From the IMG/VR virus record IMGVR_UViG_3300029373_000006: DNA of 52,972 nucleotides; one strand, given 5' to 3'. Shown here one piece after another: positions 1 to 52,972 of this stretch; within the stretch, counting starts at the first letter, position 1; every line of letters starts with the position of its first letter. The notes beneath the pieces are model-generated. The model worked only from the letters and a program-made list of their open reading frames with translations, did not search any database and had not been told where the DNA came from. The stretch is from a virus. Position numbers and translations under genes: made by a program.

Positions 1-1370
1 TGGCACGTGGCGCAGCCAAGACCATGTTCGCCGAATTCGTCCAGGCATATTTCCTCATCATGGACACGTCGACGACCTCGCAGATCGTCGTGGCTCCGAC
101 GATGAAGCAGGCTGAGGAAACCATGGCGCCGTTCCGAACCGCGATCATTCGATCACCCGGTCCGCTCATCAAGTTCCTATCCGAGGGATCGCTTCCCGGA
201 AACGGACCGAAATCTGCTCAGGCCAAGCTCGCCTCGACCAAGAAAGGCATCGAGAATTTCCTCACAGGCTCGCTTCTTGAGGTCCGTCCTATGTCGATCG
301 ATAAGCTTCAGGGTCTTCGTCCAAAGGTATCTACCGTTGACGAATGGCTGTCCGGTGATATTCGTGAGGATGTCATCGGCGCCATCGAACAGGGCGCGTC
401 AAAACTCGACGACTATCTCATCGTGGCGACCTCGTCCGAGGGCACCGTCCGAAACTCAGTAGGCGATACCATCAAGATGGAGTTGACGGACATTCTCAAA
501 GGAGAATACGTCAATCCTCATGTCGCCATATTCTATTATCGGCTTGACGATACCAAGGAAGTTGCCAATCCGGATATGTGGGTCAAGGCAAATCCTAATC
601 TTGGACAAACGGTTACCTATGAGACCTATCAGCTTGACGTCGAACGTGCAGAGAAGGCCCCGGCCACACGTAATGATATTCTCGCCAAACGTTTCGGTAT
701 TCCGATGGAGGGTTACACCTACTTCTTCACCTATGAGGAGACTCTTCCACATCGGAAGAAGGATTTTTGGGGGATGCCGTGCGCCCTTGGCGCCGATCTG
801 TCGCAGGGAGACGACTTCTGCTCATTCACGTTCCTCTTCCCATTACCAGATGAGACCTTCGGCGTCAAGACGAGGAACTATATTTCATCATATACCATGC
901 AGCATCTTCCTTCGGCGGCTCGTCAGAAGTACGAGGATTTCCTGAATGAGGGATCATTGTTCGTCATGGATGGCACAGTGCTCGATATGGTGCAGGTGTA
1001 TGAGGATCTCGACAAGTACATCACCGAGTCGGAGTATGATGTCCGTTGCCTCGGTTACGATCCCTATAACGCCAAGGACTTCGTGACTCGATACACCATG
1101 GACTATGGAGAGTTCGGCATCGAGAAAGTGATTCAGGGTGCCAAGACCGAATCCGTTCCGTTGGGCGAATTGAAGAAGCTGGCCGAGGATCGTCGTTTGC
1201 TCTTCGACGAGGAACTCATGTCGTTCACCATGGGCAACTGCATCGTCCTTCAGGACACGAACAACAACAAGAAGCTGTATAAGGCCAAGCGCGAGGACAA
1301 GATCGACGCCGTGGCGGCCATGATGGACGCCTTTGTCGCCTACAAGAACAACCGTGACCTCTTTGACTGA
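1..1370 (+). CDS. terL: Terminase large subunit, 3' portion. The gene begins at 52477 and wraps through the window end because nt 1-123 equal 52850-52972.
   Basis: The ORF reaches position 1 with no start (24..1370 in the track). It is in frame with the ORF opened at 52477, so the joined product is about 580 aa. Size and position fit TerL, and the 'VARGAAKT' region reads as the ATPase site. Confidence 0.75.
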   Translation, partial: ARGAAKTMFAEFVQAYFLIMDTSTTSQIVVAPTMKQAEETMAPFRTAIIRSPGPLIKFLSEGSLPGNGPKSAQAKLASTKKGIENFLTGSLLEVRPMSIDKLQGLRPKVSTVDEWLSGDIREDVIGAIEQGASKLDDYLIVATSSEGTVRNSVGDTIKMELTDILKGEYVNPHVAIFYYRLDDTKEVANPDMWVKANPNLGQTVTYETYQLDVERAEKAPATRNDILAKRFGIPMEGYTYFFTYEETLPHRKKDFWGMPCALGADLSQGDDFCSFTFLFPLPDETFGVKTRNYISSYTMQHLPSAARQKYEDFLNEGSLFVMDGTVLDMVQVYEDLDKYITESEYDVRCLGYDPYNAKDFVTRYTMDYGEFGIEKVIQGAKTESVPLGELKKLAEDRRLLFDEELMSFTMGNCIVLQDTNNNKKLYKAKREDKIDAVAAMMDAFVAYKNNRDLFD

Positions 1371-2087: not shown

Positions 2088-2609
2088 ATGACTGATGAAT
2101 TGTGGCATTATGGCGTCAAAGGCATGAAGTGGGGCGTTCGACGAGCCGAGCGTAAGACTCGCAAACAGGCCCGTAAAGACGCCCAGGAGACCGCTCAATC
2201 CAAGATGTATTACGGTGAAGGAGCCGGCGTTCGTCGACGCAACATCAATTCCGTGGTCAGGCAGCGTTCAAAAGATCCAACCTACAAGAAGGCTTTTGAC
2301 GAAGAGTACTCAAAACAGGATATGGGCAAGGCTCGCCGTGACGCTGAACGACAGCGCAAACGTACCGATCGCACCGAACCGGTAAAGACCGGAATCGGTC
2401 GTGGTGTGAAGAAGGCTGTTCGTGCAGGAACCAAGGCTGTAACGTTCGCTGCGACGACCGCCGCAGGTGTGGCCGTTTCATACTATATTTCCCATCCGGA
2501 TGAAGCCAAGCGAATGGTTAACACCATTGCCAAGAAGGCATCCAGTACGGTAAATAGGGCTCGGAACGTAGCCCGTGGCGCCCAGTTCCTTCGTAAGATG
2601 GGTCTGTGA
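2088..2609 (+). CDS. GMKWG-family paralog 2, a basic protein with an Ala-rich hydrophobic helix.
   Basis: The N-terminus is 'MTDELWHYGVKGMKWGVRRAERKTRKQARK' with an 'aggag' RBS. The conserved 23-nt core is at 2118-2140. Confidence 0.6.
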   Translation: MTDELWHYGVKGMKWGVRRAERKTRKQARKDAQETAQSKMYYGEGAGVRRRNINSVVRQRSKDPTYKKAFDEEYSKQDMGKARRDAERQRKRTDRTEPVKTGIGRGVKKAVRAGTKAVTFAATTAAGVAVSYYISHPDEAKRMVNTIAKKASSTVNRARNVARGAQFLRKMGL

Positions 2610-2764
2610 TGCGATCCTATCACGAGCTCATCCGGTATTCAGATTTTCTCGACCGGTTCCATTACCTGCAATGTCACGGATCCGTCGGACGTCCGACATT
2701 CGGTTCCGAACGTTGGATGAACCAGCGGTTCTATCGATCACCCGAATGAAAACATGTTCGTGAT

Positions 2765-3013
2765 TTGGTGATCGCTCGGGACAATGGTTTCGATCTCGGG
2801 TGCCCCGATCATCCCATCGCCGGAAAGATCATGATCCATCACATCGAGCCGTTGACTCCGGATTTCATCGAACATGGTGACGATCTGCTGCTCGATCCGG
2901 ACAATCTTATCAGTTGTTCGTTGGCGACACACAACGACCTGCACTTCGGAACCGACGAACGAGCTCGCCCATGGGTCGAACGGAAACCCAATGACACCTG
3001 TCCATGGAGGTAA
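2765..3013 (+). CDS. HNH endonuclease, packaging-associated.
   Basis: The 82-aa ORF reads 'IMIHHIEPL...ATHNDLH', a His-Me finger pattern. Its likely start is TTG or GTG at 2765/2768. It sits next to terminase, as in cos-type phages. Confidence 0.6.
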   Translation: MVIARDNGFDLGCPDHPIAGKIMIHHIEPLTPDFIEHGDDLLLDPDNLISCSLATHNDLHFGTDERARPWVERKPNDTCPWR

Positions 3014-3049: not shown

Positions 3050-3400
3050 GTGATGGATGAAAGCATTCTCAAATCGGTCAAGAAGGTACTCGGACTTGAT
3101 CCCGAATCATCCGATTTCGATGAGGATCTTGTCATATTCATCAATTCGGCGTTCTTCAATCTCAGACAATTGGGAGTTGGTCCCTCGGAGGGATACTCGA
3201 TCACCGGAATCGAAGACACGTGGAGTGAATTCACTGATGACGATCAACTTCTTACTGGCGTAAAGCCATATATTCAGCAAAAGGTTCGTCTTCAGTTCGA
3301 TCCGCCGATCAATTCGTCCCTTGGGCAATCGATCCGGAAGAACATCGAGGAGTATGAATGGCGTCTCAACATCCAAGGGGAAGGAGGTTTCAATGAATGA
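3050..3400 (+). CDS. gp6-like head-tail connector / QLRG-family DNA-packaging protein.
   Basis: 'LKSVKKVLGLDPESSDFDEDLVIFINSA' and 'NLRQLGVG' match the gp6/QLRG pattern. The protein is 116 aa. Confidence 0.5.
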   Translation: MMDESILKSVKKVLGLDPESSDFDEDLVIFINSAFFNLRQLGVGPSEGYSITGIEDTWSEFTDDDQLLTGVKPYIQQKVRLQFDPPINSSLGQSIRKNIEEYEWRLNIQGEGGFNE

Positions 3401-3812
3401 GCTCTATCACTTCGGCGTCAAAGGCATGAAATGGGGCGTCCGTAAGGACCGTAAACGATCCGTAAGTTCCAAGCGTTCGCGATCGGACAGCAAGGATTAC
3501 ACGGAAAGCCGAGACCTTCTCAAGAAGTCCCCGAACAAGTTGTCCAACGCCGAGATCCGTAAGATCAATGAACGACTCAATCTCGAACAACAGTATTCGA
3601 ATCTGACGACAAGTCAGAAGCAGAAAGGCAACCGGTTCATCGACAAGGTTGGTAACCAGATGAAGCAGACCGCGGCCAACGAGGTGTCGAAGCAGTTGAT
3701 GAATGTCGGCAAGATCGTTCTTGGAGCCGGAATCGCCTATGCAGCCAGCAGGGCCCGTGGGAACGGACAGTCATATTCATTCGACTTCGCTCGCAGGCAG
3801 ATCGGTCGGTGA
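3393..3812 (+). CDS. GMKWG-family paralog 3.
   Basis: ATG at 3393 follows an AAGGAGG RBS and overlaps the upstream stop. The N-terminus is 'MNELYHFGVKGMKWGVRKDRKRSVSSKRSRSDSK', with the core at 3419-3441 (2 synonymous changes). A hydrophobic 'VGKIVLGAGIAYAAS' segment follows. Confidence 0.6.
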   Translation: MNELYHFGVKGMKWGVRKDRKRSVSSKRSRSDSKDYTESRDLLKKSPNKLSNAEIRKINERLNLEQQYSNLTTSQKQKGNRFIDKVGNQMKQTAANEVSKQLMNVGKIVLGAGIAYAASRARGNGQSYSFDFARRQIGR

Positions 3813-3818
3813 TGCCTA

Positions 3819-5126
3819 ATGAATGTCGTTACCGATGCATTGGCGCACGCATGGAATGCGTTCGTCAACCCGTCATCCAACTTCCGTCCGTCCGTCGGAT
3901 ATTCCTCGGCGCGTCGTCCGGATACGCGGGTCTTCACCCGAGGCGTCGACCGATCGATCATATCCTCGCTGTACAACCGCATCGCCATCGATGTGAGCGC
4001 CATCGAGATCAGACATTGCCGTATCGACAAGACGACGCAGCAATATCTTGAGACGATCGATGACGGGCTCAACCAGTGTCTGAATGTTGAGGCCAATATC
4101 GACCAATCAGGCCGTGATTTTATCATGAACGTCGTGATGACGATGTGCGATGACGGGACCGCGGCTATGGTGCCGATCGATACCACGGTCGACCCGATGA
4201 ATTCGAATTCGTTCGATATTCAGACCATGCGCGTCGGTCGTGTGGTCGAGTGGTATCCGAGGGCCGTGAAACTGTCGGTATACAACGACGCTCCGAATGC
4301 CGGACAGCGTGAGGAGATCATCATGCCGAAGCGCAAGGTGGCGATCGTCCAGAACCCACTGTACCAGGTGATGAACGAGCCGAACTCTACCTTGCAGCGT
4401 CTGATCAGTAAGCTTAATCAGCTTGACGCAATCGACGACAAGGCCGCCTCTGGAAAGCTCGATCTCATCATCCAGTTCCCATACCAGATCCGGACCGAGG
4501 AGAAGAAGCGTCAGGCCGAAATCAGGCGACAGCAGCTTGAGGATCAGCTTAAGGACTCCGCTTATGGTGTGACCTACATTGACGGTTCCGAGAAGGTTAC
4601 CCAGCTCAACCGAAGCCTCGACAACCACATGCTTCAGCAGATCCAGAACCTGACGACCCAGCTCTACGGTCAGCTTGGCCTTTCCGAGGCCGTGGTGAAT
4701 GGCACCGCCTCTCAGGAGGAGATGCTCAACTACCATAACCGCACCTTGGAGCCGATGATCTCGGCCATCTGTGACGCGCTGAAGCGAACCTTTCTGACCA
4801 AAACCGCCCGAAGTCAAGGACAGAGCATCGAGTTCTTCCGCGATCCGTTCAGGTTGGTTCCGGTCACCGATCTGGCGAACATCGCCGCGGCATTCACGTC
4901 GAACGAGATCATGTCGTCGAACGAGTTCCGTTCGATCCTTGGTTTCGCCCGTTCCGAAGAACCTCAGGCGGATCAGTTGCGCAACGCCAATATCAACCCA
5001 CTCGGTACCGACGTGACCGCGCAGCAGCCAGAATCCACAGAAGAACCAACCCAAGATTCAGCACAGCCGTCTATTCAGGATGTGCTGAACTCCCCCATGG
5101 AAGGAGACAGTCAAAATGGGGTATGA
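3819..5126 (+). CDS. Portal protein (HK97-family-like), putative.
   Basis: The 435-aa product has an acidic C-terminal tail and an 'NEFRSILGF' region like HK97-type portals. It lies between the connector and the protease/capsid gene. Confidence 0.5.
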   Translation: MNVVTDALAHAWNAFVNPSSNFRPSVGYSSARRPDTRVFTRGVDRSIISSLYNRIAIDVSAIEIRHCRIDKTTQQYLETIDDGLNQCLNVEANIDQSGRDFIMNVVMTMCDDGTAAMVPIDTTVDPMNSNSFDIQTMRVGRVVEWYPRAVKLSVYNDAPNAGQREEIIMPKRKVAIVQNPLYQVMNEPNSTLQRLISKLNQLDAIDDKAASGKLDLIIQFPYQIRTEEKKRQAEIRRQQLEDQLKDSAYGVTYIDGSEKVTQLNRSLDNHMLQQIQNLTTQLYGQLGLSEAVVNGTASQEEMLNYHNRTLEPMISAICDALKRTFLTKTARSQGQSIEFFRDPFRLVPVTDLANIAAAFTSNEIMSSNEFRSILGFARSEEPQADQLRNANINPLGTDVTAQQPESTEEPTQDSAQPSIQDVLNSPMEGDSQNGV

Positions 5127-7062
5127 TTTCAGTGGCTACGCCACACGGAACGACATTCGTTGCTCTGATGGACGAACCATCATGAAGGACGCCTTCGCCG
5201 ATCAGGATGGTCAGAAGGTGCCGCTGGTCTACCAGCATAACCATAGCGACATCGACAACGTGCTTGGTCACGCGGTCCTTGAGAATCGCAATGACGGTGT
5301 ATATTGCTACGGCACGTTCAACAACACACCGATGGGCCGTGACGCCAAGGAGCTCGTCAAGCACGGCGACATCACGGCGTTGTCGATCTACGCCAACCAT
5401 TTGACCGAACGTAACAAGAACGTCATGCACGGCAACATCCGAGAGGTGAGTCTGGTCCTTGCCGGTGCCAATCCCGGCGCCTACATCGACAACGTCACGC
5501 TCCAGCATTCGGATGGAACTCAGGACCTCCTTGACGATGAGGCTGTGATCTACTCCGGCGAGGAGATCGTCGTCAAGCACGGCGATGAGGAAAGCGAGGA
5601 TGACATGCAGCATGCCGACGATTCCAAAACGTCGACCGCCAAGACCGAGGACGATTCGTCCGCGAAAGTTTCGGACAAAACGGTCCAGCAGGTCTGGGAC
5701 ACTTTTACCGACAAGCAGAAGGACGCTGTATATGCTCTTATCGGCGCGGCCATTGGTGGTGCCGAGGAGAGTGTTGCGCAGTCCGATATTTCGCACGCCG
5801 ACGAGGAGTCCGGTGATTCCTCTGATTCCGGCGAGACCGTTCAGGACGTCTTCGATACGCTGAACGAGGAACAAAAGAATGTCGCCTATGCTCTGATCGG
5901 CCTCGCCGTGGAGCAGGGTGATTCCGACAGTGAGGACACTGACGGAGAGAACAACAATAGCGCCTCCCATTCGGAGGAAGAAGGAGATATTATGTATATG
6001 AACGCCTTCGAACAGGCCGGTGCCGAGGATGAAGCTCCGGTCCTGTCCCACGACGACATGAAGGAATTCCTTACCGAGGCTAAGGACTACGGCTCATTCC
6101 GTGATTATTCCGAGAAGTGGATGAAGCACAGTGGTCAGACCTACGGCATCGAGAACATCGAGGTGCTCTTCCCGGATGCGCGTCAGGTCGGTGATGAGCC
6201 GTATCTGTACAAGCGTGATACTGACTGGGTCGACATCGTGCTCAACGGCACCCGTCACACCCCGTTCGCCCGCATCAAGACCTCGTACGCGGATCTGACC
6301 GAGGACGAGGCCCGTGCGAAGGGCTTTACGCTTGACCGCAACAACAACAAGCGCAAGATGGACGAGGTGTTTAAGGTCTATAAGCGCGTCACCACCCCGC
6401 AGACGGTCTACAAGAGGCAGCGTCTCGACCGCGACGACGAGATCGACATCACCGATTTCAATGTGGTCAACTTCCTGTGGAACGAGATGAAGGTCATGAT
6501 CCGTGAGGAGATGGCCCGTGATATTCTCATCGGTGACGGCCGCGCCGCCTCCGCCGAGGATCATGTGAATACCGAGAACGTCCGTCCGATCGTCGGTGAT
6601 GACGATCTGTATGTCATCTACAACGATGGTACCAATCCGGCCACTGATCCGACCGCATTCGTCGATCGCGCCCGTAAGGCGAAGGTGGGCTACATGGGCT
6701 CCGGCATGCCGACCCTGTTCCTGTCCCCGAGCCTGCATGGCGAGCTCATGGTGCAGCGCGACAAGGTCGGCCGGCGTCTGTACGATACCGACGCTTCGCT
6801 GGCGGCCGCCATGGGTGTTTCCGCCATCGTTGAGGTCCCGGTTCTCGAGGGCTTCGAGATGACCGAGAAGAGCAAGGTCGTTGACGGCGTGATGGTGAAT
6901 CTGCGTGACTACACCATCGGTACGGATCGCGGTGGTGAGCTGACCCAGTTCTCCGATTTCGACATCGACTACAACCAGCATAAGTACCTCATCGAGGCCC
7001 GCCTGTCCGGTGCATTGACCATGCCGAAGTCCGCCATTGTTCTGACCCACCCAAAAGCGTGA
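5116..7062 (+). CDS. Fused prohead protease, acidic scaffold-like linker and HK97-fold major capsid protein.
   Basis: The N-terminus 'VPLVYQHNHSDIDNVLGHAVLENRNDGVYCYGTF...ALSIYA' is the HK97 prohead-protease pattern. The middle is D/E/S-rich with an internal duplication ('VQQVWDTFTDKQKDAVYALIGAAIGG' / 'VQDVFDTLNEEQKNVAYALIGLAVEQG'). The C-terminal ~330 aa with 'ARDILIGDGRAASAEDH' is HK97 MCP-like. Confidence 0.7.
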   Translation: MGYDFSGYATRNDIRCSDGRTIMKDAFADQDGQKVPLVYQHNHSDIDNVLGHAVLENRNDGVYCYGTFNNTPMGRDAKELVKHGDITALSIYANHLTERNKNVMHGNIREVSLVLAGANPGAYIDNVTLQHSDGTQDLLDDEAVIYSGEEIVVKHGDEESEDDMQHADDSKTSTAKTEDDSSAKVSDKTVQQVWDTFTDKQKDAVYALIGAAIGGAEESVAQSDISHADEESGDSSDSGETVQDVFDTLNEEQKNVAYALIGLAVEQGDSDSEDTDGENNNSASHSEEEGDIMYMNAFEQAGAEDEAPVLSHDDMKEFLTEAKDYGSFRDYSEKWMKHSGQTYGIENIEVLFPDARQVGDEPYLYKRDTDWVDIVLNGTRHTPFARIKTSYADLTEDEARAKGFTLDRNNNKRKMDEVFKVYKRVTTPQTVYKRQRLDRDDEIDITDFNVVNFLWNEMKVMIREEMARDILIGDGRAASAEDHVNTENVRPIVGDDDLYVIYNDGTNPATDPTAFVDRARKAKVGYMGSGMPTLFLSPSLHGELMVQRDKVGRRLYDTDASLAAAMGVSAIVEVPVLEGFEMTEKSKVVDGVMVNLRDYTIGTDRGGELTQFSDFDIDYNQHKYLIEARLSGALTMPKSAIVLTHPKA

Positions 7063-8827: not shown

Positions 8828-9367
8828 ATGCTCGAATTGACGGTTGAAGGTGAACTCTACGACGAGTCGGAGAACGAATTTATCACTGTAGGACCGCGAA
8901 TCGTTCGATTCGAGCATTCGCTTCTTTCCGTTTCAAAATGGGAGTCGATCTGGAGAAAACCGTTCCTTGACGACGAATCAAAAAGCATCAAGGAAACGCG
9001 GTCATATGTTCGTTGTATGGCGATCGATGATATTTCGGATACCGAACTCGATCTGATCATGCTCAATCATTTTTCCGAACTTAATCATTACATCGAATCG
9101 TCGCAAACGGCGACCACGATCAATCACATGTCCAAAGGGCGTCGTTCATCATCCAAGGTGACGTCCGAACTTATCTATTATTGGATGTTTTCCGCTGGAA
9201 TACCCGCGCAACCATGCGAGACGTGGCATCTCAGCCGTCTTATCGCCCTGATCGAGATATTCGGCGTCAAGAACTCGCCGAAAAAGAAGATGGCAAAGTC
9301 TGATGTTTCGAGGATGTACAGGGAGATGAATGCCCGACGTCGAGCAGAGACTGGGAGCAAGGGATGA
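8828..9367 (+). CDS. Tail assembly chaperone, putative.
   Basis: 179 aa with a Lys-rich C-terminus, located between the major tail and tape-measure genes. Confidence 0.4.
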
Positions 9368-10422
9368 AAGGAATACTCATGGCATTGAATGGTATTGATA
9401 TTGCCAGCTATCAGGCGGGTCTTGATTTTTCTAAGGTTCCTTGTGATTTTGCCATCATCAAGGCGACACAGGGCGCCGGTTACACCAACCCGGATTGTGT
9501 CCGAGCGGTTGAACAGGCCATGTCTCTCGGTAAGGGAGTTGGCGTCTATCATTATATTTCCGGCGGCAATGCAGTCGCCGAAGCAAATTTCTTCATTAAT
9601 TCGATCCTTAACTGGATCGGCAAGGTGATGATCTGTCTTGACTGGGAATTCGACCAGAATTCGGCATGGGGCAATGAGTCCTATCTCGAGCAGGTGATCA
9701 ATCAGGTTATCGCACGAACCGGTGTTCCTCCGATGATCTATGCGTCGGCATCCCGTTACAATCAGGTCGCTGAGGTCGCCAAACGTCATAACTGCGGCCT
9801 GTGGATCGCGCAGTACGCCGACACGAATCCGACCGGGTATCAGAACACGCCATGGAACGAAGGTGCTTATGCCTGTGCCATCCGTCAGTATTCGCCCGCT
9901 GGTCGATTGAACGGTTGGAACGGCGATCTTGATCTTGATAAGTTCTACGGATCTCTTGACGACTTCAAGAAGTATTATGGGAAGTCCTCTTCGAAGCCTT
10001 CGAAGCCGTCCGTTCCATCCTCTTCCGCTCCTTCGGGAACCACGCTTCAGCTGGCGACGTGGACGATGGAAGGCAAGTATGGCAATGGTGCGGATCGTAA
10101 GAAGAATCTCGGATCCCGATACGATGAGGTGCAGAACTTCATCAATCACATCGCTTCCGCCGATGTCAACGCCCTTGCGAAGGAAGTTTGGAGCGGCAAG
10201 TACGGCGATGGCAATACCCGTAAGGTCGTGCTCGGAAGCCGATATGATGAAGTGCAGAAGATCGTGAATGGTAATGGTGTCACCAGGTATACTGTTCGGC
10301 CTAACGACACGCTTGGTGCCATCGCGCAGCGGTATGGTACCACGGTCAATCAGCTCGTGGCATGGAACAACATCGCCAACCCCAATCTCATTTACGTCGG
10401 TCAAACCATTCGAGTCAAGTAG
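9364..10422 (+). CDS. Endolysin: GH25 muramidase + 2x CW_7 repeats + C-terminal LysM.
   Basis: '[16 protein letters not shown]...[15 protein letters not shown]...GVYHYISG' is the GH25 pattern. Two repeats 'GKYG(N/D)[12 protein letters not shown]' follow, and the C-terminus '[43 protein letters not shown]' is LysM. Confidence 0.75.
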
Positions 10423-45494: not shown

Positions 45495-46123
45495 TGCGTT
45501 TCAATGATCATCACAATCTTGAGGGCCTTCATGCCTTCATGGGAGCCAGCAAGCATTCCTGGCTTCGTTACGATGACGATCATATGGCCGATATGTTCCG
45601 ATCGTCCCTTGCGGCACAACGCGGAACCGAGCTGCATGCCCTTGCGGCTGATCTCAATAAACATCGTGTGGCTCTGCCAAAGACCCATCTGACGTTGAAC
45701 GACTTTGTCAATGATGGCCTGCACTATCGCATGTCGCCCGAAGTGGTGTTATATTTCTCACCGAATTGTTTTGGCACCGCAGACCTCATCGGATACGACG
45801 ACAAGAAGAAGCTGTTGCGCATCTTCGACCTCAAGACCGGAAGCGGCGAAGTCAAGCACTTCGATCAGTTGTACATCTACGCTTCGCTGTTCTGTCTTGA
45901 ATACAAAGTCAAGCCGATGAACCTTCAGTTCGACCTTCGTCTCTATCAGAACGATCACATCAAGATCGCCACCAACGCCGATCCAAAGTACATCAAGCTT
46001 GGACCGAACACTGATATTTATGAAGAGGTCAGCCCGGATGAGATTGCACACATCATGGATCGAATCCAGCACTTCGATCAATTGATCAACAAGCTGCGTG
46101 CCGAGGAATCGGAGCAGTGGTGA
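45491..46123 (+). CDS. PD-(D/E)xK (RecB/Cas4-like) exonuclease.
   Basis: 'TADLIGYDD...LRIFDLKTG' plus the 'QLYIYA' QxxxY motif. Confidence 0.5.
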   Translation: MMRFNDHHNLEGLHAFMGASKHSWLRYDDDHMADMFRSSLAAQRGTELHALAADLNKHRVALPKTHLTLNDFVNDGLHYRMSPEVVLYFSPNCFGTADLIGYDDKKKLLRIFDLKTGSGEVKHFDQLYIYASLFCLEYKVKPMNLQFDLRLYQNDHIKIATNADPKYIKLGPNTDIYEEVSPDEIAHIMDRIQHFDQLINKLRAEESEQW

Positions 46124-46148
46124 TGATATTTTCAGGAAAGGCAACGTC

Positions 46149-48932
46149 ATGGTCGTGTTAATGGAAGACGAGCCCAACTCGTTGTCCCACATCGGCGTCA
46201 AGCGCCGTTCCGGAAGGTGGCCGTATGGATCTGGCGAGGACCCTTACCAGCACGAGGACTTCTACAAGCGATATTTGGATCTCAAGAATTCCGGTCTCAC
46301 CGAGAAAGAGATCGCCGATTCCATGGGGATCACCACGACGAAGGTTCGTGCTCGTAGGACCATTGTCTATAACGAGCAGCTTGCCCAGCGCCAGCATCGC
46401 GCCTACGAGCTCAAGCAGAAGGGATATTCCAACACCAAGATCGGCGAGATCATGGGTGTGAACGAATCCACTGTTCGATCCCTTCTCAATCCTTCCAGTC
46501 GTGCCCGAGCCAATGCGTCAACCATCATCGCCAACAATCTCAAGGAGACTATTGGTAAGGACGGAGCCGTCGACATTGGCAAAGGCGTGGAGCAGTATCT
46601 GGGATATTCTCAGGACAAACTCAAGGTTGCTGTGGCCATGCTTGAGGAGGAAGGCTACACCACCCATTATATTTACACCAAGATGGGTGGTCCAAATCAC
46701 ACCACGGTCAAGGTCCTTGCTGCTCCTGGTGTGACTGTTCGAGATCTGGTCAATGACCGAAGTAAGATCAAGAATATCGGTATGTCCCTTGACGAGCCTC
46801 ACGAAGGTGGCGTTGGAATCAAGAAGCCGGTATCCATCGATTCTAAGCGTCTTGGCGTTGTGTACGCTGAGGACGGAGGAACCGAACGTGATGGTGTCAT
46901 GCTTATTCGTCCAGGAGCAGCTGATCTCGAACTTGGCGGTTCACATTACGCGCAGGTCCGCATCAACGTTGACAACAGCCATTACCTAAAAGGTATGGCC
47001 ATGTACGGTGATCCGGATCAGTTCCCGGATGGTGTAGACATCATATTCAACACGAACAAGAAACGGGGAACCCCGATCGAGGGAACCGGCGATAATTCGG
47101 TATTGAAGCCGCTCAAGCGACTGACCAATCCGGATGGAACGAAAGGCGATGTCGATTGGAGCAATCCATTCGGCGCCACCATAGATCCGATCAAAGGTCA
47201 GTATGAGTATGACGATCCAAAGACCGGGAAGAAGAAACAGTCATTGATCAATAAGGTCAATGATGAAGGCGACTGGGATGACTGGTCGAGAAGCCTTCCT
47301 TCCCAGATGCTTTCCAAGCAGGATATTTCTTTGGCCAAACGTCAACTTGGCATTGATCTTGATCGTCGTCAGCGAGACTACGATGAGATCATGGCGTTGG
47401 ATAATCCAGTAGTCAAGGCCAATCTTCTCAAGTCATTTTCTGATGAGTGCGATTCAGCGGCAATTCATATGAAGGCTGCGGCGATGCCTCGTCAGAGGAC
47501 TCAGGTTATTTTGCCGATCCCTTCCTTGAAGGACAATGAGATCTATGCTCCGAACTTCAGACCTGGCGAGAAGGTGATTCTTATTCGCTTCCCGCATGGC
47601 GGAAAGTTCGAAATCCCTGAGCTCACGGTCAACAATAACAACAAGGAAGCCCGGGCGGCTCTTAGCGGATCCAAGGATTGCGTCGGTATCAATGCCAAGG
47701 TGGCCGAACGACTCTCTGGCGCCGATTTCGATGGCGATAACGTTCTGGTTATTCCAAACAACCGAGGCGAGATCAAGACTCGATCTGCTCTTGACGGTCT
47801 GAAGAACTTCGATCCCAAGACCGCATATCCTAAGTATGAAGGTATGCGAGTCATGACGAAGCGTGAAAAGGGAAGAGAGATGGGTATCGTCTCCAACCTT
47901 ATTACGGACATGACCATCAAGGGTGCTCCTTGGGAGGATATCGAGAAGGCGGTCCGCCATTCGATGGTGGTCATCGATGCTGAGAAGCATGAGCTGAACT
48001 GGAAACAGTCCGAACGTGACAATCAGATCGATCTTCTCAAGCAGAAGTGGCAGAGTCGAGGAGATGGAAAATATGGTGGAGCATCCACTCTTATTTCCAG
48101 ATCCAAGTCCACCGAACGCGTTCCAGAACGTAAGCTTCGTTCGGCCAAGGAAGGCGGATGGATCGACCCGGAAACGGGCGAGAAGGTCTACGTCAAAACC
48201 GGTCGAGAGAAAGTCGTTCCCGCCAAGAAGGACAAGGACGGAAAGGTTATTTCTTGGAAGAAGGTTCCAGCCGAATCGGTAACGGTGAAGATGGACCTTG
48301 CCAAGGATGCCTACAAACTTTCGTCCGGAACGGCGATGGAAGGTGTCTATGCTGACTATGCAAATTCTCTGAAGTCCCTGGCAAACCAAGCCCGAAAATC
48401 GTATTTGAATTCTGGTTCGTTCAAGTATGATCCCCAAGCTGCGAAAACATACTCGTCAGAGGTCAGTTCCTTGAAAGCCAAACTCAATACGGCTCTCAAG
48501 AACGCCCCTTTGGAACGCAAGGCCGAGCTTCTTTCGGACAGTTTGTACGAAGCCAAGAAGGCGGCTCATCCAGAATATGAAAAGGATGATCTGAAAAAGC
48601 TTTCCAACAGGTGCCTTAATGAGGCCCGTATTGCAGTGGGCGCCAAGAAGCAATTGGTCGACATCACTGATAAGGAATGGGAAGCCATTCAGCATAGGGC
48701 CGTTAGCAAGAATACCCTTCAGCAGATCCTGCAAAACGCGGATCCTGACAGAGTCAAGCAATTGGCCACTCCGAAACAGGGTGTTGCTATGTCGGCGTCC
48801 CTTGTTGCGAGGGCCAAGTCCATGCTCAATCGTGGTTACACACAGGCTGAAGTAGCTGATAGACTTGGCGTATCAATAGATACACTGAAGCGTAATGTGA
48901 CTACTAAGACTAAGGTGGCAGACAATGGCTAG
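46149..48932 (+). CDS. Putative single-chain two-barrel (YonO-like) RNA polymerase with sigma-region-4-like HTH modules.
   Basis: The beta'-type signature 'IRFPHGG...SGADFDGDNVLVIP' (nt ~47670-47760) compares with 'NADFDGDQMAVHVP'. The beta-type signature 'KGMAMYGDPDQFPDGVDIIFNTN' (nt ~46990-47057) compares with 'GDKMAGRHGNKG...DGTPVDIVLNP'. HTHs are 'LTEKEIADSMGITTTKVRARR', 'YSNTKIGEIMGVNESTVRSLL' and the C-terminal 'YTQAEVADRLGVSIDTLKRNV'. Confidence 0.45.
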   Translation: MVVLMEDEPNSLSHIGVKRRSGRWPYGSGEDPYQHEDFYKRYLDLKNSGLTEKEIADSMGITTTKVRARRTIVYNEQLAQRQHRAYELKQKGYSNTKIGEIMGVNESTVRSLLNPSSRARANASTIIANNLKETIGKDGAVDIGKGVEQYLGYSQDKLKVAVAMLEEEGYTTHYIYTKMGGPNHTTVKVLAAPGVTVRDLVNDRSKIKNIGMSLDEPHEGGVGIKKPVSIDSKRLGVVYAEDGGTERDGVMLIRPGAADLELGGSHYAQVRINVDNSHYLKGMAMYGDPDQFPDGVDIIFNTNKKRGTPIEGTGDNSVLKPLKRLTNPDGTKGDVDWSNPFGATIDPIKGQYEYDDPKTGKKKQSLINKVNDEGDWDDWSRSLPSQMLSKQDISLAKRQLGIDLDRRQRDYDEIMALDNPVVKANLLKSFSDECDSAAIHMKAAAMPRQRTQVILPIPSLKDNEIYAPNFRPGEKVILIRFPHGGKFEIPELTVNNNNKEARAALSGSKDCVGINAKVAERLSGADFDGDNVLVIPNNRGEIKTRSALDGLKNFDPKTAYPKYEGMRVMTKREKGREMGIVSNLITDMTIKGAPWEDIEKAVRHSMVVIDAEKHELNWKQSERDNQIDLLKQKWQSRGDGKYGGASTLISRSKSTERVPERKLRSAKEGGWIDPETGEKVYVKTGREKVVPAKKDKDGKVISWKKVPAESVTVKMDLAKDAYKLSSGTAMEGVYADYANSLKSLANQARKSYLNSGSFKYDPQAAKTYSSEVSSLKAKLNTALKNAPLERKAELLSDSLYEAKKAAHPEYEKDDLKKLSNRCLNEARIAVGAKKQLVDITDKEWEAIQHRAVSKNTLQQILQNADPDRVKQLATPKQGVAMSASLVARAKSMLNRGYTQAEVADRLGVSIDTLKRNVTTKTKVADNG

Positions 48933-49197: not shown

Positions 49198-49563
49198 AAA
49201 GTACCGATTTCGTTGCGATCTCTCGCTCTTCATCGATAAAACAATATGATTCGAGCCAAGGAGTCATATTGTTTTGATGGAGGGGGAGGGGTCGCGACGA
49301 ACCGGCACCCTCCCGCATCGCCCGACTCCTTATTTTTTCTCCGACGGGATATTTTTCGAGAAGTCGATTACCCAGACCACGTGTTTTGGGGCTTCAAATG
49401 GGAGCGCCGCTTGGGTCCGAAACAAAATTCCTCGCTCATGGCGGTTGCGAAAACCGGAGGAAACTCCTTTCGACATTAGGGACAACCATTCGGCACTCTC
49501 TTTTGGGGAACCAAAACCAATCAGAACTCCTCGAAACCATTACAGAACTGGAGGCGATATTTC
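49198..49563 (+). promoter_or_regulatory. A 366-nt noncoding region at the early/late boundary; a candidate late promoter, leader, or cos/pac region.
   Basis: No ORF longer than 60 aa. It contains a GC hairpin 'ggaggggtcgcgacgaaccggcaccctcc' and 'ggaggaaactcct'. It lies upstream of the putative terminase small subunit. Confidence 0.4.
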
Positions 49564-49911
49564 ATGGGGCGACGTAAGAAGCTCGACGGATCGTCTTCCT
49601 CTCAGTTCTCGCCCGCTTCCAATCCGGAGGAACGCGAGAATCAGATGATTTCGCTCGCCGTCAACCTTGCCGAGCAACAGCTTCGCGAGGGGACGGCTTC
49701 ATCTCAGGTCATCGTGCACTATCTCAAGCTTGCTTCGACTCGAAACAAGCTTGAAGAGGAGAAGATCAAGTATGAGACGGCCATGCTTCAGGCCAAGAAG
49801 GATGCGCTGAACAAATCTGGTCAGCTCCAGGAGCTCATGGCCAATGCTTTGGATGCATTCCGTTCATATTCCGGAAACACAGAAGAGAGCGAGGTATCAA
49901 ATGGAAGATGA
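49564..49911 (+). CDS. Terminase small subunit, putative.
   Basis: A basic N-terminus 'MGRRKKLDG' and a 115-aa helical body, at the head of the packaging and structural gene block. Confidence 0.35.
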   Translation: MGRRKKLDGSSSSQFSPASNPEERENQMISLAVNLAEQQLREGTASSQVIVHYLKLASTRNKLEEEKIKYETAMLQAKKDALNKSGQLQELMANALDAFRSYSGNTEESEVSNGR

Positions 49912-51124
49912 ACTTTATCACTTCGGTGTAAAAGGCATGAAGTGGGGCGTTCGAAGGTATCGGAACGAAGATGGATCACTTACCTCGCTCGGTAAGAAGC
50001 GCGATAAGATGCTTTCTGATCGGAAAGTCGCAAAAAGGAACTCAACCACTTCCAATATCGTTAACGCGGAATATTCCCGTCGCGAATTTGAGGACGCCAA
50101 GACTCGACTGAAACTTGAAAACCAGACGAAAAAGTCAAAGCGTCAGCAGGATCTTGAGAAAAAGTATCTGAAGCAAGGATTCACCAAAGACGAGGCCGAG
50201 ATCAAAGCTTATAATCGAGCTAAGACAGAAACAATCCTTAAGGTTGCCGGAGGTATTGCTTTAGCATCCGCAGCGGCCTATGTTGCGTACAAGCATTACG
50301 ATAAAGTCACCGATCAGGTATTCAAAAAGGGAAGTAAGATCGGTCGTTTGACGAACGACGGATCGGAACCGACCAATAGGGCGTTTTATGGCTTCGTCAA
50401 CAAGCACGACAAAGATCGGTATGAAGGTCTTTATGGCAAGACGCTTGGCGCGAATGGAACCGTGTATCGTAAGGCCATGCGAGCCGCAGGAGATATTAAT
50501 ATTGCCTCTCCTGAATCCGCTCGAAAGGTTCTTAAGAATATGTTTGACACTGATAAGCAATCTTTCGATGGTTTTAAGAGGACCATAGACGAGTTGACCT
50601 CCGTTGTTCCTCCTATAGGGAAACAAGGACAACTTTGGCAAAAGGCCAAACGGGAACTTGATTCCGGGAAGATCGGTGATAATACCTATAAGGCATTCAA
50701 CACACTGCTTGTTAATCACACCAAGGAGCAACAGCCGATCAATGATAAATTCTATTCGGCCATGAAGAAGGCCGGATATGGTGCGATCCGCGATGTGAAC
50801 GATAAAGAGAATTCCGGATATTTTGCCAGGAATCCGTTGATTGTATTCGATACCGACAAGATCGATGTAGAGGGATTCACGAAGCTCGGGAGTGATCATA
50901 TCAATTTCATGTTCACTAAAGAGCATGGAAAGATCGCTGCTCATGCGTTGGCAAACGAGTACGGTCCTATCGGAGCCGTATTTGCGACTTCTATGGGAGC
51001 GATGAAACTTGTTAAGCGATCCAGTGAGACAAAATTCGTTGAAAACTATCGCAAGCAACATCCTGAGAGCACATTGTCTAATAATGAAATTCTGAAGATG
51101 AGAGATCGGATTGTCAATGCTTAA
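49901..51124 (+). CDS. GMKWG-family paralog 4 (408 aa, large variable C-terminal domain).
   Basis: 'MEDELYHFGVKGMKWGVRRYRNEDGSLTSLGKKRDK', with the core at 49931-49953. A hydrophobic 'VAGGIALASAAAYVAY' segment follows. Confidence 0.6.
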   Translation: MEDELYHFGVKGMKWGVRRYRNEDGSLTSLGKKRDKMLSDRKVAKRNSTTSNIVNAEYSRREFEDAKTRLKLENQTKKSKRQQDLEKKYLKQGFTKDEAEIKAYNRAKTETILKVAGGIALASAAAYVAYKHYDKVTDQVFKKGSKIGRLTNDGSEPTNRAFYGFVNKHDKDRYEGLYGKTLGANGTVYRKAMRAAGDINIASPESARKVLKNMFDTDKQSFDGFKRTIDELTSVVPPIGKQGQLWQKAKRELDSGKIGDNTYKAFNTLLVNHTKEQQPINDKFYSAMKKAGYGAIRDVNDKENSGYFARNPLIVFDTDKIDVEGFTKLGSDHINFMFTKEHGKIAAHALANEYGPIGAVFATSMGAMKLVKRSSETKFVENYRKQHPESTLSNNEILKMRDRIVNA

Positions 51125-51668
51125 CGATACCGAAATCAAAGATCTTTGTATTACCCGGCATATGATCACGCCATTCGATGAGCCCCAACTTCAGCCATGC
51201 AGTTACGACGTCACGCTCTCTAAGAGCATCGTACGATATTTCGGTCGTGGTGAGATCAATGCCATGGATTACACCCTTCATGATCTGGAGTATATTCGTT
51301 TCGCCATGAACGATGACGGTTTCGTTCTCGATCCAAATGAATTTATCCTCGGATCAACAAATGAGGGCGTGACCATTCCGAAGAACATCGCGGCGCGCTT
51401 CGAAGGTAAATCGTCACTCGGTCGTCTTGGACTCGCCACTCATGTGTCTGCGGGATTCATTGATCCTGGGTTCGCCGGTGACATTACTCTTGAGATCAAG
51501 AATCTTAACAACCATCCCATTCGTATATTTGCCGGTATGAGGATCGGTCAGTTGTGCTTCTTCGACCTTCATGACGATGTCGATCGCGCCTACGGATCCA
51601 ACGGGCTCGGATCACATTACCAGAACCAGTCCGGCCCAACTCCTTCGCGAGGTGATGGCGATGCGTGA
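51111..51668 (+). CDS. dcd: dCTP deaminase (Dcd/dUTPase fold).
   Basis: 'PCSYDVTL...GKSSLGRLGLATHVSAGFIDPGFAGDITLEIKNL...GMRIGQLCFF' is the Dcd family pattern. Confidence 0.65.
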   Translation: MSMLNDTEIKDLCITRHMITPFDEPQLQPCSYDVTLSKSIVRYFGRGEINAMDYTLHDLEYIRFAMNDDGFVLDPNEFILGSTNEGVTIPKNIAARFEGKSSLGRLGLATHVSAGFIDPGFAGDITLEIKNLNNHPIRIFAGMRIGQLCFFDLHDDVDRAYGSNGLGSHYQNQSGPTPSRGDGDA

Positions 51669-52098
51669 GCTTTATCATTACGGCGTCAAAGGCATGAAGT
51701 GGGGCGTTCGGCGCTATCAGAACGCCGATGGCACACTCACCTCCAAAGGCAAGGCCCGTCAGGCCAAACAGACCAAGAAGGCCCAGAAGAAGTGGGACAA
51801 GAACGCTAGTCGACATTGGATTGAAGGTTATAACAAAGCAGTCGATTATTCCAATAACAATTTCATCGACAAACTCAACGAGAAGTACAAAGATTACGAT
51901 TTCTCGGATCCAACCGATAAGAAGATCCAGAAGGTCTATAAGCGCTATGTCGAGGAGTACGTAAATGGCTTCAACAGCATTCTCGAAAAGAGCTATCGCG
52001 AGGTTCTCGGCGATCGCCCGGACGATCCAAGAGCTATTCGATCTCTTCCGTTCTATAACGATGCCAATTCGTTGTATCAAGCATGGCTGAATGATTAG
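51661..52098 (+). CDS. GMKWG-family paralog 5.
   Basis: 'MRELYHYGVKGMKWGVRRYQNADGTLTSKGKARQAKQTKKAQKK', with the core at 51688-51710. Confidence 0.6.
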   Translation: MRELYHYGVKGMKWGVRRYQNADGTLTSKGKARQAKQTKKAQKKWDKNASRHWIEGYNKAVDYSNNNFIDKLNEKYKDYDFSDPTDKKIQKVYKRYVEEYVNGFNSILEKSYREVLGDRPDDPRAIRSLPFYNDANSLYQAWLND

Positions 52099-52106
52099 GA
52101 GATATC

Positions 52107-52460
52107 ATGGCCGATGAACTTTATCATCATGGAGTTAAAGGCATGAAGTGGGGCGTTCGACGAGCCCGAAAGAAGTATTCTAATAAGTCTCTTCGTCAGT
52201 ATAATGCGAATCAGAGGAACGCCAAAAGTCTCAAAAGAGATCTTGATTCGAACTTTGATTCCTCGACCGGTCTGAAATTGGATCCCGAGACACGGAGCGC
52301 CTACAAACATGAGTACAACAGAGCTGTGGAAACCGGACGACAATGGCTTCAGACGAGGCAGGATATTTTAAACATGCCAGTGAATTCCACCACGGTTTCC
52401 GACATCAAGAACCGATATAATAAGACCCGTCGCGGAAACGTGTATTATCCTTTCGCGTGA
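52107..52460 (+). CDS. GMKWG-family paralog 6.
   Basis: 'MADELYHHGVKGMKWGVRRARKKYSNKS', with the core at 52137-52159. It follows an 'aggagatatcatg' RBS. Confidence 0.6.
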   Translation: MADELYHHGVKGMKWGVRRARKKYSNKSLRQYNANQRNAKSLKRDLDSNFDSSTGLKLDPETRSAYKHEYNRAVETGRQWLQTRQDILNMPVNSTTVSDIKNRYNKTRRGNVYYPFA

Positions 52461-52476
52461 ACGACAAGGAGGAACC

Positions 52477-52972
52477 ATGACCCTATCGAGCACAGCCGTT
52501 CCGAAATACTACGGTCAGTTCCGTGACAGGGTCATGGCCGGAGAGATCCCGGTATGTCATGAGATCGAGATGGAGATGAACAGAATCGATGATCTCATCC
52601 GCAATCCCGGGATCTACTATGACACCGATAAAGTCGAAGGATGGGTATATTTCTGCGAGAAGGAACTCACCCTGACTGACGGATCTCCGGTTCATCTTCT
52701 CGATAGTTTCAAACTCTGGGGCGAGCAGATATTTGGTTGGTACTACTTCGTCGAACGATCGGTCTATATTCCGAATCCACATGGAGGTCCGGGTCGATAC
52801 GAGAATCGTCGGATCTGCAAACGTCTGATCAACAAACTATATTTGATCGTGGCACGTGGCGCAGCCAAGACCATGTTCGCCGAATTCGTCCAGGCATATT
52901 TCCTCATCATGGACACGTCGACGACCTCGCAGATCGTCGTGGCTCCGACGATGAAGCAGGCTGAGGAAACCA
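52477..52972 (+). CDS. terL: Terminase large subunit, 5' portion (continues at window position 1).
   Basis: AAGGAGG sits 5 nt upstream of the ATG. The window end 'LIVARGAAKTMFAEFVQ...' is identical to the window start. Confidence 0.75.
   Translation, partial: MTLSSTAVPKYYGQFRDRVMAGEIPVCHEIEMEMNRIDDLIRNPGIYYDTDKVEGWVYFCEKELTLTDGSPVHLLDSFKLWGEQIFGWYYFVERSVYIPNPHGGPGRYENRRICKRLINKLYLIVARGAAKTMFAEFVQAYFLIMDTSTTSQIVVAPTMKQAEET

Follow-up and report, generated by a model that had tools for sequence, protein, structure and literature searches.

Why would six genes gathered around the terminase of one gut phage genome carry the same 16 residues in proteins that otherwise differ so much? The question is raised by the window analysed here, the whole 52,972-nucleotide stretch of IMG/VR virus record IMGVR_UViG_3300029373_000006, in which a first-pass annotation, made from the letters alone, had picked out six plus-strand genes with a common motif and proposed that their products are packaged and co-injected with DNA. 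We identify this motif as the Pfam family DUF7211 (PF23847), and we judge it mildly probable that it acts as a docking tag, borne by internal head proteins which exit the capsid along with the DNA.

DUF7211 in six genes of the window

A pattern scan of the window in six reading frames with G[VIL]KG[ML][KR]WG returned six occurrences, all on the plus strand and in the very genes that had been pointed out, with open reading frames (ORFs) starting at 1384, 2088, 3393, 49901, 51661 and 52107 (named D1, D2, D3, D4, D5 and D6, respectively). The aligned copies read E-L-[YW]-H-[FYH]-G-V-K-G-M-K-W-G-V-R-[RK] over 16 residues, with E, L, H, G, V, K, G, M, K, W, G, V and R fixed in all six, and all six proteins match PF23847, a 25-residue model with a gathering cut-off of 27 bits, at 40.7-41.6 bits (E ~1e-10). 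Thus, the motif, which had not been recognised as a described family, does belong to one, albeit uncharacterised; Pfam assigns it no function. The six proteins also match ~12 PHROGs of unknown function, in matches that span both the motif and the cargo; PHROGs with the DUF7211 motif include 7502, 6291, 7021, 34327, 32444 and 11022, and one of those matched, phrog_35934, which has the same motif, bears the name 'virion structural protein'. No NCBIfam model matches any of the six proteins.

Bases 52850-52972 repeat bases 1-123 exactly, and this 123-bp terminal overlap makes the window a circular (or circularly closed) assembly of 52,849 bp, in which the large terminase (TerL) crosses the junction (5' part at 52477-52972, continuing as the 3' part at 1-1370, plus strand). 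The six DUF7211 genes therefore flank TerL on both sides, in agreement with the original description. The circular order is RNA polymerase (RNAP), a 90-aa gene, a 366-bp gap, a 115-aa gene, D4, dCTP deaminase, D5, D6 and TerL, followed by D1, D2, HNH endonuclease, a connector-like protein, D3, portal and a protease-capsid fusion; the identities given earlier to the interspersed HNH, connector-like and dCTP deaminase genes were confirmed, as were the portal and the protease-capsid fusion, and the remainder of the structural module is an ordinary siphovirus tail set.

In five of the genes, the start codon lies 1-3 codons ahead of the motif and is preceded by a Shine-Dalgarno-like sequence, namely, in D2 (2088-2609, 173 aa, phrog_6291; motif codons 2097-2144), D3 (3393-3812, 139 aa; motif 3399-3446), D4 (49901-51124, 407 aa; motif codons 49910-49957), D5 (51661-52098, 145 aa; motif codons 51667-51714) and D6 (52107-52460, 117 aa; motif codons 52116-52163). 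As had been noted, the motif of D1 (1384-2079, 231 aa) is internal (aa 77-95, motif codons 1615-1662) and follows a 76-aa N-terminal domain. D3 has the canonical layout of a small unit, with the motif, a basic tract, a LSNAEIRKINERLNLEQQY helix and an Ala/Gly hydrophobic helix, and in D4, the motif and YRNEDGSLTSLGKKR are followed by a basic helix, then by a hydrophobic one (aa 111-129) and finally by a C-terminal domain that is conserved (~aa 150-407).

The Lys/Arg-rich tract described after the motif is present throughout, with 15-18 Lys or Arg among the 60 downstream residues, and the six proteins have a net charge of +9 to +28 and an isoelectric point (pI) of 9.5-10.8. The hydrophobic Ala/Gly helix holds up less evenly. 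It occurs in D1 to D4 and is absent from D5 and D6, where 19-residue Kyte-Doolittle windows detect no such helix, as had been reported, but only D4 comes near transmembrane grade: the maxima over 19 residues are 1.58 in D4, 1.26 in D2 (hydrophobic segment aa 117-135), 1.05 in D3 and 0.93 in D1, the helix of D1 being weak. The description of the C-termini as unrelated has to be revised, given that D1, D3 and D4 form one similarity cluster beyond the motif, sharing YxNxDG(S/T)LTxxGKKRY, a helix of the type LSxxELRxxINRLxLEQQY and the hydrophobic helix near the C-terminus.

The C-terminal domain of D4 has invariant D, G, D, D, P and I residues that are kept in at least 25 related loci, and its homologues include ReqiPoco6 gp019 and gp021 and Fazel gp16; a profile search found no relative of this domain in the PDB, the sole match being a de novo designed protein. 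As the phage is abundant in metagenomes, searches with D4 and with a profile of 15 diverse cargo domains yielded little beyond relatives of at least 85% identity (one had 72%). With no deep alignment of D4, the full-length AlphaFold2 model was therefore poor (predicted local distance difference test, pLDDT, 54; predicted template modelling score, pTM, 0.41), and a Foldseek comparison of this model with viral structures gave no usable match. For D4 residues 1-75, modelled from 125 sequences, pLDDT reached 85, with the motif extended and non-regular and residues 29-73 forming one long helix. In this model, the motif would have no autonomous fold, consistent with a peptide that becomes structured on a partner.

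The N-terminal 76 residues of D1 (1384-1614; …GLAMPDGGYPIRNRKDLRNAIQAYGRG…) appear as a separate small domain for which no Pfam or PHROG match was obtained; GLAMPDGGYPIRNRKDLRNAIQAYGRG is presumably a motif of other phage head proteins as well. An apparent resemblance to a cell-wall-binding repeat was an impression only, and no such Pfam match was obtained for the six proteins.

A head-module family of one phage lineage

A full HMMER scan of 1.84 billion representatives of clusters at 50% identity placed DUF7211 in 28,859 clusters at E <=0.001 and in 1,704 at E <=1e-10. Profile searching, which the first-pass annotation had advised, thus recovered abundant relatives, and all copies examined belong to one phage lineage (Lactococcus 1706, Rhodococcus ReqiPoco6, Streptomyces BI and relatives). 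Cultured carriers include phages of Gordonia, Streptomyces, Arthrobacter, Curtobacterium, Microbacterium, Rhodococcus, Faecalibacterium and Bifidobacterium as well as Lactococcus 1706-type phages, the nearest cultured phage being Bifidobacterium phage BitterVaud1. DUF7211 is catalogued in Pfam and PHROG with no function, context or RNAP link on record; in our literature search, neither the family name, the accession PF23847 nor the motif strings occurred in any paper found, nothing was found on BitterVaud1, and papers on Streptomyces phage Scarif, Rhodococcus phage WC1 and Microbacterium phages contained no virion proteomics for DUF7211 genes.

A supercluster of phages with a YonO-like RNAP as signature gene has been described (bioRxiv 10.1101/842583), and the window falls within it, with RNAP - p90 - p115 - HNH - connector - TerL - portal - protease/capsid fusion on one strand. 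By tblastn comparison of 85 loci and the window, the synteny of the lineage is p115 - HNH - connector - D (1-4) - TerL - D (0-4) - portal - protease/capsid, where D stands for DUF7211 genes, and the polymerase and the 90-aa gene lie immediately upstream of this head module across the lineage; the window is locally rearranged, as are the related loci L007-L010, L019 and L034. The motif genes were mapped in 79 IMG/VR loci, which had been fetched through the motif, as well as in 23 genome loci and 5 cultured phages, and in all of these they are confined to the connector-terminase-portal zone on the coding strand. The fetched loci and the window together contain 270 motif copies over 84 loci, 1-7 per locus, all on the strand of the head genes, and 229 of 268 copies begin at most 40 codons from the upstream stop. 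The same module surrounds 22 of the 23 hits in contigs of bacterial genomes and metagenome-assembled genomes. ReqiPoco6 has seven motif copies, Fazel four, BitterVaud1 two, and 1706 two in one gene. No DUF7211 gene was found in the replication module, upstream of RNAP, in any of 41 loci.

The basic character of the six proteins extends to the family, with a pI above 9 in 95% of 237 distinct complete proteins. Two parts of the proposed architecture do not. A membrane helix is not a standard part, as 40% of these 237 proteins have no hydrophobic helix and 18% have one of transmembrane grade (Kyte-Doolittle 1.6), nor is the motif a strict leader, given the many relatives in which it lies internally or occurs 2-5 times. 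The top-scoring proteins of the large scan are chains of 2-5 units, 150-300 residues apart and each opened by the motif, and these multi-unit chains imply that the motif is not strictly an N-terminal signal. Outside the motif, 256 complete genes fall into 82 similarity groups.

Polyproteins of up to 1,335 aa with 2-5 DUF7211 units were observed in relatives (L020:1885-5151, P0297-P0446), and their units occur as separate adjacent genes in other phages, a pattern of fusion and fission. The sequence upstream of internal motif copies is acidic, with Leu at position -2 in 88%, and shows a (K/R)H(S/M/E) tendency 4-14 residues upstream. No sharp, conserved cleavage site was found upstream of the internal motifs, and a conserved site was discarded as a candidate, only the weak acidic or (K/R)HS tendency being seen.

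Domain censuses of 127 and 78 relatives identified, as cargo, a 2H phosphoesterase (2'-5' RNA ligase superfamily), a GNAT acetyltransferase, a papain-fold glutamine-deamidase toxin and, in a single case, a CW_7 repeat. Gordonia phage Fazel has its 2H domain N-terminal to the motif, in the gene immediately before TerL. None of the 2H phosphoesterase, GNAT, glutamine-deamidase or CW_7 domains was detected in the six proteins of the window. A search of the protein database with a 45-residue motif profile returned only fragments of 30-77 aa, which are uninformative on cargo.

A putative docking tag and its alternatives

The motif reaches proteins with structural labels in phage 1706. There, ORF7 contains two motifs, lies directly upstream of TerL and is labelled 'structural protein' in GenBank, as is ORF75, the RNAP homologue; these labels reportedly stem from virion mass spectrometry by Garneau and colleagues (2008). 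ORF71 of 1706, labelled 'structural' as well, was inspected for the tag, which is absent.

The RNAPs of the lineage themselves start with (D/E)xLxHYG(V/T/M)(K/P)R(R/H)SGRYPWGSG. In the window, the YonO/QDE-1-like single-subunit RNAP (46098-48932, plus strand; phrog_4291) has the N-terminus SLSHIGVKRRSGRWPYGSG (~46176-46235), which has the first half of the DUF7211 motif in common. In an independent set of 80 loci picked by RNAP catalytic motifs, the start xLxHYG..SGRYPWGSG, to which 46176-46235 (SLSHIGVKRRSGRWPYGSGEDPYQH) of the window polymerase corresponds, is found in 71 polymerases. DUF7211 genes are present in 18 of the 20 RNAP loci having enough downstream DNA. By hmmsearch, the DUF7211 profile scores 6-17 bits against the polymerase N-termini in 17 of 19 distinct sequences, with the window's own polymerase at the weak end (6.8 bits), and hhalign aligns DUF7211 to the polymerase N-terminus over 11 columns with a probability of 92.6% and E = 4.6e-7. 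Bridging variants exist, for instance, ELxHHGILKQKWGVRNGPPYPLRGGDY. Judged by sequence, the polymerase leader appears to be a DUF7211 variant that retains the first half of the motif only.

How do these proteins compare with known head cargo? The internal proteins of T4 (IPI, IPII, IPIII and Alt) are basic, have a short N-terminal tag, are packed in the head and injected, and some counter host defence. Their capsid targeting sequence, of ~10 residues, binds a separate scaffold core and is removed by gp21 at LxxE. The DUF7211 proteins resemble them as otherwise unrelated basic proteins with a short tag and a predicted place in the head. The T4 analogy drawn in the first-pass annotation does not extend to sequence: unlike the T4 targeting sequence, to which it has no similarity, the DUF7211 tag has 16 residues and may be internal or repeated, and in place of a separate scaffold core, the window has a fused protease-scaffold-capsid protein. 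The MuF analogy fares likewise. As in the MuF (SPP1 gp7-like) polymorphic toxins, a conserved head-associated module is combined with exchangeable toxins, the papain-fold glutamine deamidase in DUF7211 relatives being one; unlike MuF, DUF7211 is a peptide rather than a domain, and most units have no recognisable toxin. The six proteins show no sequence relationship to either system: no Phage_Mu_F Pfam domain was detected in them (E up to 1) or in 205 relatives (E up to 1e-4), and no MuF domain was seen in the head-module ORFs tested. The inner-body proteins of phiKZ, several paralogous internal head proteins per genome that are processed, with the cleavage rule S/A/G-X-E, and ejected, are comparable in their number of paralogues; phiKZ, unlike the DUF7211 lineage, is a jumbo myovirus with a different protease and cleavage rule.

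Delivery of a virion RNAP with accessory ejection or cargo proteins is known from N4-like phages, crassviruses and Thermus phage P23-45, where the polymerases are giant, multi-protein or tape-measure-fused (PMC13434306, PMC11445570, PMC10172136, PMC10770324). Unlike in the DUF7211 lineage, these polymerases have no reported N-terminal tag in common with small head-module proteins. The 1706/ReqiPoco6 lineage is not mentioned in PMC10770324, and the polymerase N-terminal motif is mentioned neither there nor in bioRxiv 10.1101/842583.

We propose that the products of the six genes are internal proteins of the head in a siphovirus of the 1706/ReqiPoco6 type. Here, the motif (D/E)xLxH(Y/F)G(V/I)KGMKWGVR(R/K) would be a short docking peptide, lacking an intrinsic fold, that recruits each unit to a conserved procapsid component. 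The very basic remainder of the unit might rest on the packaged DNA or on the acidic, scaffold-like linker of the fusion of prohead protease, acidic linker and major capsid protein (5116-7062, plus strand). In the window, this linker (aa 141-300, ~5536-6015) has a net charge of -36 over 160 residues, and it is likewise strongly acidic in ReqiPoco6, 1706, Fazel and BitterVaud1; we regard it, by inference, as a candidate for the docking partner. At infection, the proteins would exit the capsid together with the DNA: units with a hydrophobic helix may insert into the membrane, enzyme and toxin units, found in relatives only and not in the window, would act inside the cell, and the RNAP with the tag variant might travel the same route and start transcription. 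That the six proteins are packaged and ejected, that the motif acts in docking and which partner it would bind are all inferred here from genes and labels. Of the earlier proposal of packaged, co-injected cargo, what stands is backed, indirectly, by the label of 1706 ORF7, the half-motif of the polymerase, the toxin and enzyme cargo of relatives and the head-module position, and the parts that assumed a leader and a membrane helix are dropped. As the most economical explanation, docking covers the fixed head-module position and the extreme conservation of a short peptide beside free variation, together with the basic nature of the proteins, the cargo of enzymes and toxins, the labels as structural proteins and the polymerase tag.

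Several points weigh against this proposal. Virion presence rests on database labels of relatives, of which the 1706 label is a GenBank record and the ReqiPoco6 structural labels, including that of the RNAP, were copied from 1706 by similarity. The similarity between polymerase and motif is limited to ~10-11 residues, and charge complementarity is unspecific. Furthermore, a motif that is internal or repeated in many proteins is no classical N-terminal signal and could mark unit boundaries, and with 40% of members having no hydrophobic helix, membrane insertion is not general.

The alternatives account for parts of the same evidence. Basic proteins with long helices, as nearly all members are, encoded in the head module of a phage with an acidic linker in its capsid fusion, could be scaffold- or histone-like assembly or DNA-condensing proteins that are kept in the capsid or expelled before maturation and play no role in the next host. 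We consider this unlikely, because a scaffold-like segment is already present in the lineage as part of the capsid protein fusion, toxin and enzyme domains and a tag in common with an RNAP would make little sense, and the GenBank record of 1706 labels ORF7 as structural. The motif might instead be a unit-boundary or processing signal, with the prohead protease or another factor cutting polyproteins such that the motif marks a new N-terminus and targets nothing. The many relatives built as polyproteins of 2-5 motif-led units, the acidic stretch and recurrent (K/R)H(S/M/E) before their internal motifs, and the NHSEELYH of D1 in the window would all suit such a signal, which we nonetheless find a good deal less likely still, given that 229 of 268 copies are already N-terminal in separate genes, that the cleavage site is not sharply conserved and that the polymerase has a single, N-terminal copy; processing is compatible with docking, and both could hold. 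That the proteins are late, membrane-directed and not part of the virion (lysis regulators or superinfection-exclusion factors, with the motif as a membrane or wall tag) is suggested by the hydrophobic helix that some members have near the C-terminus and by the lysin and holin genes immediately upstream in ReqiPoco6 and Fazel. This appears improbable for a family in which 40% of members, D5 and D6 among them, have no hydrophobic segment, a soluble 944-aa RNAP has the half-motif and a 1706 member has a structural label, and the endolysin gene of the window lies elsewhere (9364-10422).

Finally, the motif could be a nucleotide-level repeat, that is, a recombination or regulatory site translated by chance, or the product of recent gene conversion with no common protein function. 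Its seven core codons, AAA GGC ATG AAG TGG GGC GTT, are near-identical in the six copies even though AAA and GTT are minority codons here (23% of Lys and 19% of Val, respectively), and a milder preference for AAA and GGC extends across the family (77% and 59%). However, in 112 distinct motif copies of other phages, synonymous positions vary while the residues stay constant, so that the constraint acts on the protein; moreover, the outer motif codons differ between the six window copies, and the motif is present in tens of thousands of divergent proteins. A DNA-level repeat is therefore largely refuted as an explanation of the motif, and we give it hardly any weight. As an observation in its own right, the 21-nt core AAAGGCATGAAGTGGGGCGTT is nearly identical at 1636-1656, 2118-2138, 3420-3440, 49931-49951, 51688-51708 and 52137-52157; gene conversion and a codon-level effect are possibilities for this uniformity.

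Neighbouring genes and implications

The zone of the DUF7211 genes ends downstream at the portal gene (3819-5126, plus strand). The acidic linker of the protease-capsid fusion behind it holds an internal repeat (aa 190-219 and 242-271; VQQVWDTFTDKQKDAVYALIGAAIGG / VQDVFDTLNEEQKNVAYALIGLAVEQG). Upstream of D3 lies the gene for a connector-like virion structural protein (3050-3400, plus strand; phrog_4247), a homologue of 1706 ORF6. The HNH endonuclease gene (2606-3013) has an in-frame TGA at 2747-2749, at which four close relatives (L008, L009, L034 and L111) have TGG (Trp), so that the TGA of the window is either a nonsense mutation or an assembly error, in a gene that the lineage conserves. 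The dCTP deaminase gene (51111-51668, plus strand), located between D4 and D5, is outside the DUF7211 family; a head module is an odd site for a gene of nucleotide metabolism, and it occurs among DUF7211 genes only in the sub-lineage of the window (L001, L007-L010, L019 and L032). Throughout the lineage, the first gene of the head module encodes the conserved 115-aa protein p115 (49564-49911, plus strand; phrog_4259), possibly a small terminase.

Between the polymerase operon and the head module, a non-coding gap of 366 bp (49198-49563) has two terminator-like features, a 15-nt inverted repeat (49238-49275) and a G-rich hairpin with a T run behind it. This gap probably holds the cos site, given the synteny with ReqiPoco6, in which the 3' cos ends lie after the p90 homologue, and the contig ends, 55 of 80 related contigs terminating at this gap. 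The endolysin gene occupies an unusual position within the tail module, with the major tail protein region on one side and the tape measure on the other, comparable in kind to that of LysB in ReqiPoco6.

To conclude, the family itself is already in Pfam, whereas its context and cargo repertoire, the arrangement in multiple units and the connection with the polymerase N-terminus appear to be new. More tentatively, and with somewhat less confidence than we have in docking itself, we suggest that one tag, (D/E)xLxHYG...WG, may be the address for loading and delivery throughout a lineage that ranges from phages of Actinobacteria to those of Firmicutes, bringing a YonO-like RNAP and exchangeable basic membrane, enzyme or toxin proteins into the cell together with the DNA. 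DUF7211 is a very large family with no assigned function that is common in gut and soil phages. If the proposed role is correct, it would explain how a siphovirus brings its own RNAP into the cell, provide a catalogue of injected effectors, possible anti-defence enzymes included, in uncultured gut phages, and offer a short portable tag for loading foreign proteins into phage heads.

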